DNA of 64,000 nt, taken from positions 2,432,001 to 2,496,000 of the forward strand of contig OY762492.1 of assembly GCA_963665845.2 (NCBI GenBank), given 5' to 3'. Position 1 is the first letter of the stretch. Each line of letters opens with the position of its first letter. The notes beneath the pieces were generated by a model. That model did not search any database and was not told the origin of the DNA. It saw only the letters and a list, made by a program, of their open reading frames with translations. Source of the stretch: Candidatus Poribacteria bacterium. Lineage in GTDB: Bacteria > Poribacteria > WGA-4E > GCA-2687025. Below, piece by piece: positions 1 to 26,845 of the stretch. The position numbers and the translations under genes are program-made.

Positions 1-314
1 ATTTTGCGCATCTCTGTGAAATACAGCTCGCGGAGTATCGGCAGCCGCTCGTCAACAGGCGTCTTTTTCTTTTTCAACTGCTCGTTCCGAAGCAGGAGCT
101 GGTCGGAGACGTTGATGACGTGCGCATGCATGTCTTTAAACATGACGGAGCTTGGGTTGCTGCGCATACGATGCTCGGTGTCCTGCATGATCTCTCGGAC
201 GGCCGCTTCCAGTTCGAAGGTGAACTTTTCTGCGTCGGCGCGGAGCGGCGCAAGACAGAATGCCGCGGCGGTTAGGGCGAAGGTTAAGGCGGTTGACGGG
301 GCGTATCGGCGCAT
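1..314 (-). CDS. Partial (runs off window edge) secreted paralogue of the helical-domain array, type A
   Basis: Not in the ORF track; manual translation from ATG 314 (GGAG upstream) gives MRRYAPSTALTFALTAAAFCLAPLRADAEKFTFELEAAVREIM...ERLPILRELYFTEMRK, homologous to 328..1386. Confidence 0.85.
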   Translation of the reverse strand, partial: MRRYAPSTALTFALTAAAFCLAPLRADAEKFTFELEAAVREIMQDTEHRMRSNPSSVMFKDMHAHVINVSDQLLLRNEQLKKKKTPVDERLPILRELYFTEMRK

Positions 315-327
315 CGGTTTCTCCATT

Positions 328-1386
328 TTAATTGCTTGCCGCGTTTTCGTTTTCCTCTTGGGTTGAATTGAATCTCATTGCGAGATAGACCCCTCCGACG
401 AGGAGAAGTAGGACAGCTGCCGCCCCGATCATCAAGAGGCACATCCGCGAATCCCCCGACTTCGCAGAGGTCTGTATGTTCAGCGCCGATAACAACGCGA
501 ACGGAATTTGATACGTTAAAGGGGCGCCGGCGGAATCCAGCTGCGGACTGCCGGCGTTGTCGTAAAAAGAAAGTTCCGCCGCCTCCTCATCGAATTGAAC
601 GATCCGCGTCAGATTGTCAAACTCTTTGACGATCTCGATCATCTTGCCGCGCAGTTTCTCGACCCGCTCCTCGTCCGGCCGCCCCTTTAAAGACAGCTCC
701 ACATCCAACTTTGAAAGCTCGTAGCGGATCTCCGCAACCATGGAGTCGACCCCGCTTCGATACTTCGGCGGCGAGGTCGGAGCTGGGGATGGCGGCAATT
801 TTGGCAACATATGTTCGTGAAGATAGGAGCTGAGAAGCGCGGGGTTCGATTGTTGAAAACGGCGCCAGGATTCATCAAGGCGCGACAATGCGTCGTTCAG
901 TTGGCGCGCAAACGGATCCGGCTCTATCTTATGGAATTCAAGCAGCCAGAAGAGTTTTTGAGCGATAGAGCCGCCGCTGTATCTTCCGGACGCGTCGAAC
1001 TCATAACGGGCAAACCGCAGCGATTGATTTCGCTCATTGTATTTCACGGAGGAGAATTTGTCCGGCTTCAGTTGATGGATTTTGCGCATCTCGGTGAGAT
1101 ACAGCTGGCGGAGTATCGGCAGCCGCTCCTTGACAGGGACATTTTTTATCTCAAACGCCTCGTTCAGACGCAGCAGCTGATCGCCGACGCCGGTCATGAG
1201 CTTATGCAGGTCTTTCGCCGCGGCGGAGCTGGGATAGCTGCGAATTCTCGCCTCGCCCTGTTGGGACATTTCTTGGACGGCCGCTTCCAGTTTGAGGGTG
1301 AAGTCTTCAGCGTCGGCGCGCAGCGGCAAGCACACAAACGCCAACGCAGCAAGAACAGCAATCAGCGGAGCGGTTCGGGTCGTCAT
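328..1386 (-). CDS. Helical-domain array protein type A (signal peptide, two domain copies, C-terminal TM)
   Basis: Signal peptide ending PLRA-DA; FTLKLEAAV...ERLPILR; second copy ELSKLDVEL...ERVEKLR; C-terminal hydrophobic LLMIGAAAVLLLLVGGVYLAM. Confidence 0.85.
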   Translation of the reverse strand: MTTRTAPLIAVLAALAFVCLPLRADAEDFTLKLEAAVQEMSQQGEARIRSYPSSAAAKDLHKLMTGVGDQLLRLNEAFEIKNVPVKERLPILRQLYLTEMRKIHQLKPDKFSSVKYNERNQSLRFARYEFDASGRYSGGSIAQKLFWLLEFHKIEPDPFARQLNDALSRLDESWRRFQQSNPALLSSYLHEHMLPKLPPSPAPTSPPKYRSGVDSMVAEIRYELSKLDVELSLKGRPDEERVEKLRGKMIEIVKEFDNLTRIVQFDEEAAELSFYDNAGSPQLDSAGAPLTYQIPFALLSALNIQTSAKSGDSRMCLLMIGAAAVLLLLVGGVYLAMRFNSTQEENENAASN

Positions 1387-2456
1387 TCAGTTTCTGCCTT
1401 GTGTTCGGCTTCTTTGGCGGAGTTGCGCTTCAATGACAAAAAGACGCCTGCCAAAACAAGCAGCAAGAGAGCCGCCCCGCCGCCCAGCAGCTGAAGACGA
1501 TTCGAGCTCGGCATCATCAGCGCCGCTGTCAGCTCGGGCGGGACTTCAAATACGATAGGGGAGCCGGCGCTGTCAAGGATCGGACCGCTTTCGTCGCGGA
1601 AAGGGATTTTCACCTCGCCGCCCTCAACCAGAACCTCCAGCCCGACATACTCCACTTTTTGGATCATCTCAAAGAAAAGGCGGCGCAGTTTCTTGGCGCG
1701 CTTCTTGAGCGGCGTTTTCCGCTCCGCCAGCTCCGCATCCAGTTTTGTCAGCTCATGTTCGATCTGCCACATGAGATGACCAAGGTCTCTACCCACAAAC
1801 CGCTCCATCGGCGTTGGAGGCGAAGGGTTCCATAACCCTGTCAGATTGGGGCGGACGATCTCCTTATCGAGAATATGGGAGACTTTGCCCCGAACAACTC
1901 GATTCGTGTATTCAAAACCCTTCCACTCATTGACGAGATCCCGCAATGCGATCGTAAGCTTGAACCCGGCTGAATCGACGGTCGTTCTCCCCTGTATCAA
2001 CAGCGAATCCAACCTCCATGCGAATCCGCCTTCGGGTCCGCTCCCGACGCTGCCCCCTCCGCCTGGAGAACCGCGATGGTAGAACGCCAGCGACTGCAAG
2101 CGCTCATTATACAGCGCTATCGAATTGCCGTCCGGCTCTAACTCATGAATTCGGCGCATCTGCTGAAAATACATCTGGCGCAGGATCGGTATGCGCTCTT
2201 CTTCAGGCATCTGTATCTTTTCCAGCTGTTCGTTTCGGAGCAGCAACAGGGAGCCAATCTCCGAGAGCAGACCGGCGAGGCTTTGCGCCATGACAGATTT
2301 TGGGTAGTCGTTGACAGGCTCATGCCCTTGTTGAGTCAACTGACGGACCGCCTCTTTCAGCTCGCGGGTGAAGGCGTCGTCGTCGGCGCGCAGCGGCAGA
2401 CACGCAAACGCCAGCGCAGCAAGAACAGCAATCGGCGGAGCGGTTCGGGTCGTCAT
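1383..2456 (-). CDS. Helical-domain array protein type A
   Basis: Same signal peptide and motifs; ATGA overlaps with neighbours; C-terminal TM plus basic tail. Confidence 0.85.
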   Translation of the reverse strand: MTTRTAPPIAVLAALAFACLPLRADDDAFTRELKEAVRQLTQQGHEPVNDYPKSVMAQSLAGLLSEIGSLLLLRNEQLEKIQMPEEERIPILRQMYFQQMRRIHELEPDGNSIALYNERLQSLAFYHRGSPGGGGSVGSGPEGGFAWRLDSLLIQGRTTVDSAGFKLTIALRDLVNEWKGFEYTNRVVRGKVSHILDKEIVRPNLTGLWNPSPPTPMERFVGRDLGHLMWQIEHELTKLDAELAERKTPLKKRAKKLRRLFFEMIQKVEYVGLEVLVEGGEVKIPFRDESGPILDSAGSPIVFEVPPELTAALMMPSSNRLQLLGGGAALLLLVLAGVFLSLKRNSAKEAEHKAETE

Positions 2457-25107: not shown

Positions 25108-25929
25108 ATGACGAAAACGACCAAGATCGTTCTTGCGGTTTCTGCCGCTCTGTTGATAGCGATGCTGGGCGCGTATCTTTGGATCGAATACGGCGGCGGG
25201 TCGGACGACTCGGATCAAGGGCTGACGGTTGAGGAGCAGTCGCTGGTCATCCATGACAGCGGCGCAGAGGACAGCGCCGATTCTTCAACCGAAACGGAAC
25301 CGTCCGACGACTCTGAAGCCGCGCAAACTTCCGAAGCGGAGCAGGCTGTCGACAACGGCGGCGCGGAAAATACAGCGGCAGCGTCTCCCGACGCCTCCGC
25401 CGACGCGCCTGACGATTTTTCAATCCAGCTCCAAGAGGGCATCCAGGAAATCGTCGATTACGTTGCAAAGGTGAAAGCGCAAATTCCTAAAATGGATTTG
25501 TTCGAGGAGACAACGCTCGCTTCCGTGGAGGGTCTTGATGAGCTGGACGCGCAATTGCGGCGGCAGGGGGTAGCGCTGGAAGAACGGAGAGAAAAACTGC
25601 TGACGAAGTATCTGTATAACTCCATGGATAACACAGGTTCCATGATAGTGGGGTTTGCCTCCATGACGCAGTTAGAAGGGGGCTTTAACACAGAGCGCAT
25701 GGCAGAGTTGCCCCTGATTCTCCGTAGCATAGGGGAGCCTCCTAAAAAGCTGACCAATCTGCTGATGGGCGATATGACCGAGGCGCAGCTGATACAGAAA
25801 ATGATGACAATCCCTGAATATCGGGCGAAGGTGGAGGCGGCGATGTCGGAGATGAGAGAGAGCTTGCAAGATCTCGATCTAGAGAGTCTTGATCTATCGG
25901 GGCCAATTGAAGATCCGTTGCGCCGCTGA
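25108..25929 (+). CDS. Sigma-less membrane-anchored helical-domain paralogue
   Basis: Starts MTKTTKIVLA like the post-sigma part of the fusions; DDFSIQLQEGI..LDAQLRRQ..PKKLTNLL. Confidence 0.85.
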   Translation: MTKTTKIVLAVSAALLIAMLGAYLWIEYGGGSDDSDQGLTVEEQSLVIHDSGAEDSADSSTETEPSDDSEAAQTSEAEQAVDNGGAENTAAASPDASADAPDDFSIQLQEGIQEIVDYVAKVKAQIPKMDLFEETTLASVEGLDELDAQLRRQGVALEERREKLLTKYLYNSMDNTGSMIVGFASMTQLEGGFNTERMAELPLILRSIGEPPKKLTNLLMGDMTEAQLIQKMMTIPEYRAKVEAAMSEMRESLQDLDLESLDLSGPIEDPLRR

Positions 25930-26014
25930 AATCGGGCAGGTTCATTTTTCAGCGGCATCGTGTATCATCAGGGCGTCAACCTCTATGAGAAACGACGGGA
26001 AGGCGTTCTGAATC

Positions 26015-26845
26015 ATGACGAAAACGACCAAGATCGTTCTTGCGGTATCTGCCGCTCTGTTGATAGCGATGCTGGGCGCGTATCTTTGGATCGAATACGG
26101 CGGTTCATCGGACGACTCGGATCAAGGGCTGACGGTTGAGGAGCAGTCGCCGGTCATCCATGACAGCGGCGCAGACGACAGCGCCGATTCTTCAGCCGAA
26201 ACGGAACCGCCCGACGACTCCGAAGCCGCGCAAACTTCCGAAGCGGAGCAGGCGGACGACAACGGCGGCGCGGAAAATACAGCGGCAGCGTCTCCCGACG
26301 CCTCCGCCTCCGCCGACGCGCCTGACGAATTTTCAACCCAGCTCCAAGAGGGCATACAGGAAATCGTCGATTACGCGGCAAAGATGAAGGCGCAAGTTCC
26401 TGAAATGGCTTCGTTCGGGGACACGTCTCTCGCTTCTGTGGAGGGTCTTGCTGAGCTGGACGCGCAATTGCGGCGGCAGGGAACGGCGCTGGAAGCGCGG
26501 AGAGAGCAGCTGCTCATGAAGTACATCAATAACACCATGGACAACTTAGGTTCCATGACGACGGGGGCTGCCTCCATGGCGCTGTCAGGAGGGGCATTGA
26601 CCCCTGAGCGCATAATGGAGTTGTCCCAAAGCTTCGAGAGCATGGAGCCTCCTAAAAAGCTGCATACGCTGCTGCGCGGCGATATGACGGAGGAGGAGCT
26701 GACGCAGAAAATGATGGCAACGCCTGAATATAAGGCGAAGGTGGAGGCGGCGATGTCGGAGATGAGAGAGAGCTTGCAAGGTCTTGATCTAGAGGGTCTC
26801 AATCTGGACGATCTTGAACTGCCGGAGCTGCATGAGGATCGATAA
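26015..26845 (+). CDS. Sigma-less membrane-anchored helical-domain paralogue (tandem duplicate)
   Basis: Upstream region and N-terminus almost identical to 25108 at offset 907. Confidence 0.85.
   Translation: MTKTTKIVLAVSAALLIAMLGAYLWIEYGGSSDDSDQGLTVEEQSPVIHDSGADDSADSSAETEPPDDSEAAQTSEAEQADDNGGAENTAAASPDASASADAPDEFSTQLQEGIQEIVDYAAKMKAQVPEMASFGDTSLASVEGLAELDAQLRRQGTALEARREQLLMKYINNTMDNLGSMTTGAASMALSGGALTPERIMELSQSFESMEPPKKLHTLLRGDMTEEELTQKMMATPEYKAKVEAAMSEMRESLQGLDLEGLNLDDLELPELHEDR

Follow-up and report, generated by a model that had tools for sequence, protein, structure and literature searches.

What is a small helical domain doing at the far end of a sigma factor, and why is the same domain also found, free of any sigma factor, in an array of membrane proteins encoded nearby? 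These questions are raised by a stretch of 64,000 nucleotides (nt) from a Candidatus Poribacteria bacterium (assembly GCA_963665845.2, contig OY762492.1, positions 2,432,001 to 2,496,000), which is referred to here as the window. The Poribacteria are mostly sponge symbionts. Fifteen genes of the window share the helical domain, all of them located where a first-pass annotation had placed them, and in two of these, c1 and c2, the domain is joined to an extracytoplasmic function (ECF) sigma factor. The answer that we favor, for which we consider the case evenly poised, is that c1 and c2 may be membrane-anchored ECF sigma factors with swapped five-helix domains, acting as one-piece periplasmic sensors that would be released by proteolysis and accompanied by sigma-less twins.

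The sigma cassette and its probable internal start

The domain occurs in three settings. Type A proteins harbor a signal peptide, one or more copies of the domain and a C-terminal transmembrane segment (TM); type B proteins have an N-terminal TM, an acidic stalk and the domain; and in type C proteins an ECF sigma factor precedes the TM, stalk and domain. Hydropathy and flanking charge agree with all three topologies, with positive charge ahead of the N-terminal TMs and acidic stalks after them; signal peptides were called from the sequence alone. The sigma locus, in window coordinates, contains the following features.

22154..22188 (+): predicted family ECF-type promoter of c1 (TAAAA-N15-CCACA)
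22214..23590 (+): c1, type C sigma fusion; sigma2/sigma4 at residues 1-165, linker, TM at residues 196-214, EEQSP at 22904-22918, stalk, helical domain from 23084
22766..22783 (+): predicted c1 internal Shine-Dalgarno (SD) sequence GGAGGA and in-frame ATG (Met190)
23639..23673 (+): predicted family ECF-type promoter of c2
23700..24959 (+): c2, type C sigma fusion; mosaic, with nt 1-695 c1-like and nt 709-1244 g9/g10-like
24252..24269 (+): predicted c2 internal SD GGAGGA and in-frame ATG (Met190)
24381..24425 (+): c2 swap junction; duplicated LTVEE, then EDQSP
25108..25929 (+): b3, free type B; begins with MTKTTKI, as would the product of the c1 and c2 internal start
26015..26845 (+): b4, free type B; recent duplicate of b3 (86% nt identity)

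The cassette consists of a promoter motif, sigma2 and sigma4, a linker of about 25 residues, one Gly-rich TM, the motif EQ(S/T)P, an acidic stalk and an ectodomain. The sigma part of c1 exceeds the cut-offs of PF04542, PF08281 and TIGR02937 and is modelled as two helical domains; it has sigma2 and sigma4 only, with a short linker between them, as is found in ECF (group 4) sigma factors, and no NCBIfam subfamily lay over its cut-off among the best 25 matches listed. A model of c1 residues 1-223 comprises sigma2, sigma4, a last helix that extends to residue 177, residues 181-195 at low confidence and the helix of the TM, and is without an anti-sigma domain (predicted template modelling score 0.42, at which the arrangement of the domains is not defined by the model). 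To judge from the sequence, the sigma factor is tethered through the linker, without a folded anti-sigma domain, to a single TM.

The genome encodes 11 paralogues of the c1 sigma factor, with sigma identities of 54-95%. The helical domain is carried by three of them; among the remaining eight there are five further ectodomain types, of which one has 17 free paralogues and another has free relatives. The proposal in the first-pass annotation that a near-constant sigma factor sits on interchangeable ectodomains is thereby borne out, with 11 paralogues, six ectodomain families in the genome and a mapped swap point. In the species collection the sigma factor is closest to Candidatus Poribacteria records, with up to 90% identity, and across the class the family is found in 17 of 41 genomes at E 1e-25, with up to 17 copies. 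From these 17 genomes we assembled 86 relatives (the loci of the class search plus 40 stretches chosen from its matches, c1 and c2 being excluded), two of an initial 88 open reading frames (ORFs) having been dropped, one as mis-anchored and one as a different sigma factor. The reading frame across the junction is kept in all 86, with a fixed spacing of 35-38 codons in most, and 83 of their ectodomains fall into 26 clusters that include WD40, PD40, Kelch, Vps10 and PurC. No homologue ending soon after sigma4 was seen among the relatives examined.

In each of the 11 paralogues an in-frame ATG or GTG lies shortly before the TM and is preceded, at a distance of 7-13 nt, by GGAGG; the 3' end of the 16S rRNA contains CCUCCU. 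An SD of 5-6 nt with an in-frame start is present in 59 of the 86 relatives, as against 19 of 1949 control windows. With nine sigma ORFs that are without the anchoring motif excluded from the junction counts, GGAGG is followed by an in-frame start at 60 of 63 junctions (four families) compared with 41 of 252 occurrences elsewhere in the same ORFs, and the spacing from SD to start is 10 nt in 45 of the 60. The first Gly of the junction is encoded by GGA in 61 of 64 cases, whereas this holds for only 10 of 77 at a nearby invariant Gly of the same genes; on the same tree (58 rows) its codon has changed 3 times, against 14 at the invariant Gly. ATG and GTG interchange at the putative start, the SD is also read in other frames, and the codons that follow are A-rich with low G+C at third positions. 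Very probably, then, GGAGG with the following ATG or GTG initiates a second product shaped like b3 and b4, such that each fusion gene would also make a sigma-less, type-B-shaped twin.

It is conceivable that this junction, GG-x-x-x-M at the protein level, is instead kept because the protein is cleaved there or because it makes the ribosome pause ahead of the TM, and that a single protein is made. The c1 linker (residues 181-195) is predicted to be disordered, with a predicted local distance difference test (pLDDT) score <50, as a cleavage site would be, and 60 of 63 GGAGG sequences are in frame with Gly-Gly. However, the constraint sits on a synonymous base, the start codons interchange between ATG and GTG at initiation spacing after the SD, and the free b3 and b4 begin at the same Met, so that we regard this explanation as very improbable.

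Two further groups of genes include sigma fusions. A second expanded family, unrelated to the first, is represented at chromosome 2576950-2578440 and by 17 dispersed genes; its proteins are built of TM, stalk and ectodomain and match nothing in Pfam, one of them is fused to the sigma factor, and EQ(S/T)P is present in several. Chromosome 1716006-1726880 holds five more sigma fusions in a cluster, three of them with a common uncatalogued domain and one with a DnaJ_C-like piece (E 7.6e-4, under the cut-off) that is similar to the genome's own DnaJ.

The helical domain and its exchange with free genes

The remaining helical-domain genes of the window form an array on the reverse strand.

3..326 (-): g0, type A, 5' part; signal peptide, two domain copies, C-terminal TM; ends 801 nt before the window start
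328..1386 (-): g1, type A
1383..2456 (-): g2, type A
2453..3520 (-): g3, type A
3948..4961 (-): g4, type A
4980..5558 (-): g5, type A, chimeric, with a single domain; nt 1-410 match g3 at 99% identity, nt 498-579 the g4 tail at 96%
5904..6944 (-): g6, type A
6958..7593 (-): g7, type B; N-terminal TM, EEQSP at 7462-7476, acidic stalk, domain
7615..8271 (-): g8, type B; domain 7618-7974 modelled as five helices
8313..8975 (-): g9, type B; stalk DNA 81% identical to the c2 stalk
8991..9656 (-): g10, type B; domain sister to the c2 domain (81% nt identity over 414 nt)

Ectodomain exchange is apparent from both phylogeny and DNA. In a 40-row domain tree the type A domains form one clade, but a single clade of the nine sigma-fused domains is rejected (approximately unbiased test, p-AU 5.7e-37), and well-supported branches force at least four changes; c2 pairs with g10, c1 with the free protein P0018, and one fusion of a congener with b3/b4. 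The DNA of c2 is 89% identical to c1 over nt 1-695 and 78-81% identical to g10/g9 from nt 709, and two genes of the congener change donor at the same EQSP motif. Orthologues of a further fusion gene, s2576, share 90% identity in the sigma part and 32% in the ectodomain. Within the genome EQ(S/T)P follows a TM in 21 of 87 matches, all within these families, as compared with 0-2 of 47-70 for five permuted motifs. Together, the tree and the mosaic DNA demonstrate, at the level of sequence, that ectodomains move between free type-B genes and the sigma cassette, the predicted point of exchange being EQ(S/T)P. Because c2 switches from c1-like to g9/g10-like exactly at EQSP, the free genes appear to act as a donor pool for cassette ectodomains.

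The homology of the domains extends across all three topologies, as had been claimed. A profile built from type A alone matches 11 of 12 type B and C domains (E 1.6e-19 to 2.6e-3; x1722 is missed), and one built from type B alone matches 10 of 10 type A domains tested (g5 left out) and 3 of 3 type C domains, where reversed sequences reach at most 14.3 bits. The shared motif described by the first-pass annotation is real, but the size of about 80 residues was too small: the domain spans about 115-130, and the PxKLxxLL ending is its fifth helix. Likewise, the count of about 15 paralogues with two sigma fusions holds for the window, whereas the whole genome has 21 genes with 32 domain matches by profile search (x1722 weak), three of them sigma-fused. 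Six genes, including the third fusion, lie outside the window, and the genome also encodes type A proteins with three and four domains.

The g8 domain, modelled from a 42-row alignment with pLDDT 94, has helices at 5-27, 32-56, 62-87, 96-107 and 111-117. Conserved columns are chiefly hydrophobic core positions, prolines and a few charges (D4, E16, R65, K112); there is no Cys in the 28 type B and C rows counted, and no catalytic set is evident in the domain. A homodimer prediction scored 0.01, which is evidence neither way. That the domain is uncharacterized, as first suggested, stands up: no match exceeds the cut-offs of Pfam, NCBIfam, PADLOC or PHROGs, and PhoU, ApoLp-III and TipAS were rejected as its identity, being weak Pfam matches under the cut-off. 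Fold searches return generic helical bundles only, with nothing from Foldseek at E 0.001, a best VIA result (Z 8.0, root-mean-square deviation 5.1, 117 aligned) that is a tie among unrelated helical bundles, and no usable match for type B or type A in the ESM Atlas; these results show neither novelty nor absence.

A profile search of 1.84 billion representatives gave 45 domain matches, and the ten looked up were all without names; P0040, P0043 and P0044 look like chance matches and were discarded as relatives. Among 41 genomes there are 32 matches here, 35 in the congener and one each in three others. A wider profile, which included two of the lineages that it then matched, finds the domain in 16 of 121 class genomes, 14 of the 119 outside the genus having one or two copies each. 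Domain counts across the class therefore suggest that a mostly single-copy type B protein has been expanded in one Poribacteria genus. The domain represents an uncatalogued family of a little-studied symbiont lineage.

The array is not invariant between this genome and the congener, in keeping with the first-pass annotation. The congener has 13 genes to the 11 here, among them three g0-like, two g3-like and three g9-like genes and one four-domain gene with a 5' frameshift, and none whose best match is g1, g2, g4 or g5. Sigma fusions with the helical domain number five there and three here; one of the five is at a site that is empty in this genome, and a decaying, sigma-deleted copy is present elsewhere. 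Ratios of nonsynonymous to synonymous substitution (dN/dS) against the congener, which are pairwise between two genomes with orthology blurred by conversion, are 0.13-0.24 for the sigma cores, 0.24-0.45 for linker and TM, 0.28-0.71 for the helical domains and 0.33-0.60 for four type A genes; the local background is at most 0.29 in 38 of about 47 non-family genes, wrong-frame ORFs having been removed by eye. The helical domains thus appear to change faster, without evidence for net positive selection.

It had been suggested that this variability reflects a diversified receptor or decoy repertoire for host, phage or self/non-self recognition, shaped by an arms race. The different membership of the array in the congener, domain dN/dS ratios above the local background, a conserved framework with variable helix faces and the chimeric g5 are all in its favor. 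Against this, no ratio at the domain level exceeds 1; contact with host cells or phage tails is unlikely because the cell envelope is of the diderm type (see below) and no outer-membrane or autotransporter feature was seen; PADLOC gave no match for the eight family proteins tested, nor PHROG for seven; and pieces of the array in contigs from four sequencing runs show no difference. We find no support for such recognition and consider the explanation quite improbable. The contigs in question (at most three samples of one study, possibly the source) exactly match long array pieces and support the assembly, but they are not independent of it, and the structure of the c1-b4 locus is supported by the congener only.

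Several other features lie in or around these loci. The array and the sigma locus are not regarded as linked, as the congener has the two on different contigs. Window 1-30000 has no Rfam match. Palindromes resembling repetitive extragenic palindromic elements, of which one is present 806 times and another 259 times on the chromosome, occur at 3603-3820 and 5641-5860, and 29-nt tandem copies lie upstream of g3 and g5. Between array and sigma locus, at 15237-17688, are an IS1595-family transposase (frameshifted or partial), to which a transposase ORF at 62899-63843 is similar, and a type II methyltransferase-like gene fused to a helix-turn-helix. A candidate defence pair, HEC-01A/HEC-01B (13091-14901, -; PADLOC E 6e-145 and 8e-42), diverges from the congener more than the neighbouring genes do. 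A CHASE2 histidine kinase (26855-28687, -) is convergent with b4, an adjacency shared with the congener, and a different, unfused ECF sigma factor, followed by a double-FHA protein and a TPR/peptidase-like ORF, is found at 40835-43600 (+).

Predicted promoters, likely location and proposed release

Two features, in addition to the cassette promoters, are relevant to expression.

9690..9719 (-): sigma70-type promoter match ahead of the array (TTGACA-18-TATAGT, 11 of 12; consensus match only)
56944..57869 (-): secreted protein gene of unknown family, candidate regulon member; gene 56944-57843, predicted family promoter 57835-57869

Ten of the 11 paralogues have the promoter motif upstream, and the eleventh lies directly downstream of another paralogue. 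All 21 sites listed (this genome together with 11 congener sites) fit TAAAA-N15-CN(A/T)CA. At 24 bits or more there are 12 sites in the genome, namely ten cassettes, gene 56944-57843 and a secreted TolB/PD40-like gene at chromosome 3241776, and none in a 2-Mb Markov control. The congener retains the 56944 site with a different spacer, and a pattern search there did not find the TolB/PD40-like one. A looser form, fitted after inspection, precedes 57 of 88 class members, compared with a shuffled mean of 3.9 and with 71 of 1525 ordinary genes. The upstream TAAAA(T) is not taken for a housekeeping -10, since several sites do not keep the final T and another box lies exactly 15 nt downstream; a site at 139288 failed the two-box scan and was dropped. 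An intergenic palindrome present about 800 times was considered as a candidate cassette boundary; five of ten cassette promoters lie within 210 nt of a copy.

Ahead of b3 and b4 there is a TATCAT box, and the type A and B genes appear to have housekeeping-type promoters. From the sigma70-type matches on the one hand and the family promoter on the other, the free genes are likely to be constitutive and the fusions self-amplifying. The predicted regulon is small, consisting of the cassettes themselves and two secreted proteins. A freed sigma factor would probably transcribe mainly its own family's promoters together with a few secreted proteins, and so lead to more of the same membrane proteins.

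Genes for Omp85/BamA and LpxC are present, which indicates a diderm cell. An inner-membrane-anchored domain would then face the periplasm, and a periplasmic location is likely for the domain in all three topologies; the surface exposure that was first proposed is not supported. The fused TMs have hydrophobicity scores of 1.8-2.3 and 1-4 Gly, whereas those of g7-g10 score 2.8-2.9 with no Gly, and the genome has three M50 and three S41 protease genes. Gly-rich, weakly hydrophobic TMs and these proteases fit proteolytic release without proving it. By analogy with IutY, the tether would keep the sigma factor off until an S41-type protease trims the periplasmic part and an M50 site-2 protease cuts the TM, steps that we hold to be somewhat better than even in likelihood. 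On what would set this off we are more tentative, and lean slightly against our own proposal that the helical domain is a gate that keeps the stalk shielded and is changed by a protein ligand in the periplasm or by damage to the envelope, with constitutive free copies buffering the input and storing variants.

The strongest rival is suggested by PurC. The same sigma factor is fused in frame to a complete PurC in three genomes of two families (G005, G006, G023); the fused copy in G023 is 97% identical to that genome's free PurC, and in G006 (79% complete) the fused copy is the only one seen. The cassette could accordingly be an expression device that captures genes as passenger cargo, with cargo production from the internal start, driven by the family promoter, being what is selected and the helical domain being an envelope protein that does no sensing for the sigma factor. 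Such a device would account for a predicted regulon made up mostly of the cassettes themselves, for the decayed, sigma-deleted copies, and for the free and mostly single-copy domain in 14 of 119 other class genomes; gene sequestration has also been proposed for Planctomycetes (PMC7671368). Yet it sits poorly with the frame kept at every junction at fixed spacing, the low dN/dS of linker, TM and sigma, and the Gly-rich signature kept in fused TMs, and an autoregulated cassette would still need a trigger. It is unlikely, although it deserves to be taken seriously.

Proteolytic release of a periplasmic sensor has to contend with several observations that weigh against it or against its parts. Membrane release cannot apply to the relatives with the sigma factor on PurC, nor to those of family f2 (L100, L101, L102, L108), in which WD40 propellers are joined to it at the same junction and there is no TM. 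The free b3/b4 TMs (score 2.3, one Gly) overlap the fused range. Among control genomes M50 is found in 14 of 14 and S41 in 10 of 14, and because they are so common the presence of these proteases is weak evidence. Neither family-library nor fold searches gave a ligand or fold match that points to sensing. The mosaic points could stem from older conversions, and they do not fix the direction of exchange. The promoter pattern was derived from the sites that it scores, and paralogues share it by descent. Finally, 27 of the 86 relatives are without a 5-nt SD at the junction, mainly in genus g5 (where 9 of 23 have one), and the drop in mRNA folding around the internal start is small and is not seen in two families.

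An extension of the sensor model is that the system is a re-wirable receptor library, in which the constitutive free array would store sensing domains, recombination at EQ(S/T)P would plug them into the self-activating cassette and the twin would set the threshold. We think this doubtful; were it true, signal inputs would be shuffled as antigen cassettes are.

Comparison with known systems

In the clostridial SigI-RsgI systems, paralogous alternative sigma factors are read out via different extracytoplasmic domains on stalks, as here. Unlike here, these are two-protein sigma/anti-sigma pairs with carbohydrate-binding modules, and the cell is monoderm.

The closest in mechanism is IutY of Pseudomonas putida, a sigma/anti-sigma hybrid of ECF243 that is released by proteolysis (PMC5411451, PMC8999054). 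IutY, like c1 and c2, places a cytoplasmic ECF sigma factor, a TM and a periplasmic domain in one chain, and the release proposed above is modelled on its Prc- and RseP-type proteases. Unlike IutY, the ectodomain here is all-helical with no FecR Pfam match at E 0.05, and the family is multi-copy, with exchangeable ectodomains, free twins and a conserved internal start. The cassette would therefore work like IutY but, having no FecR domain, is not a member of ECF243.

ECF48, ECF52 (SCO4117) and ECF53 of Actinobacteria also have a C-terminal TM extension with a low-complexity stalk and a distal domain, and for these, too, proteolytic activation has been proposed; they carry a zinc-finger anti-sigma (ZAS) domain before the TM (PMC7826278, PMC8999054). 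In contrast, the linker here is only about 25 residues long, and HxxxCxxC is present in 0 of 88 linkers. In ECF57 and the duplicated ECF sigma factors of Planctomycetes, near-identical sigma cores have recently been multiplied on unrelated C-terminal domains, including WD40 (PMC7826278, PMC7671368), as in the present family. However, here there is one TM rather than about two, and the Cys pair that ECF57 conserves in sigma2 and sigma4 is lacking, with 10 of 11 paralogues having no Cys in residues 1-170 and one a single Cys.

No paper on Poribacteria ECF sigma factors or on relevant internal starts, and no gene making both a tethered sigma receptor and a sigma-less twin, was found in the literature searched, for which subscription journals and bioRxiv supplements were outside the scope. 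A term search of the main text of PMC7671368 gave no ribosome-binding site, start codon or Poribacteria, and Poribacteria are not mentioned in the part of the PMC7826278 supplement examined.

The duplicated ECF sigma factors with sequestered extensions (PMC7671368) are nevertheless the nearest evolutionary parallel. There, the travelling unit is sigma2/sigma4 only and extensions arise by fortuitous insertion, whereas here it would comprise promoter, linker, SD, start and TM together with the sigma factor, and exchange takes place at a fixed motif with a free pool. Pinto et al. (2020) asked whether the variable extensions of multiplied ECF sigma factors have any regulatory effect, and how such extensions arise (PMC7671368). 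With its promoter, two candidate targets, internal start and natural chimeras all defined, the locus described here allows a direct test of the first point, and with a free donor pool and a fixed swap motif it offers a traceable answer to the second.

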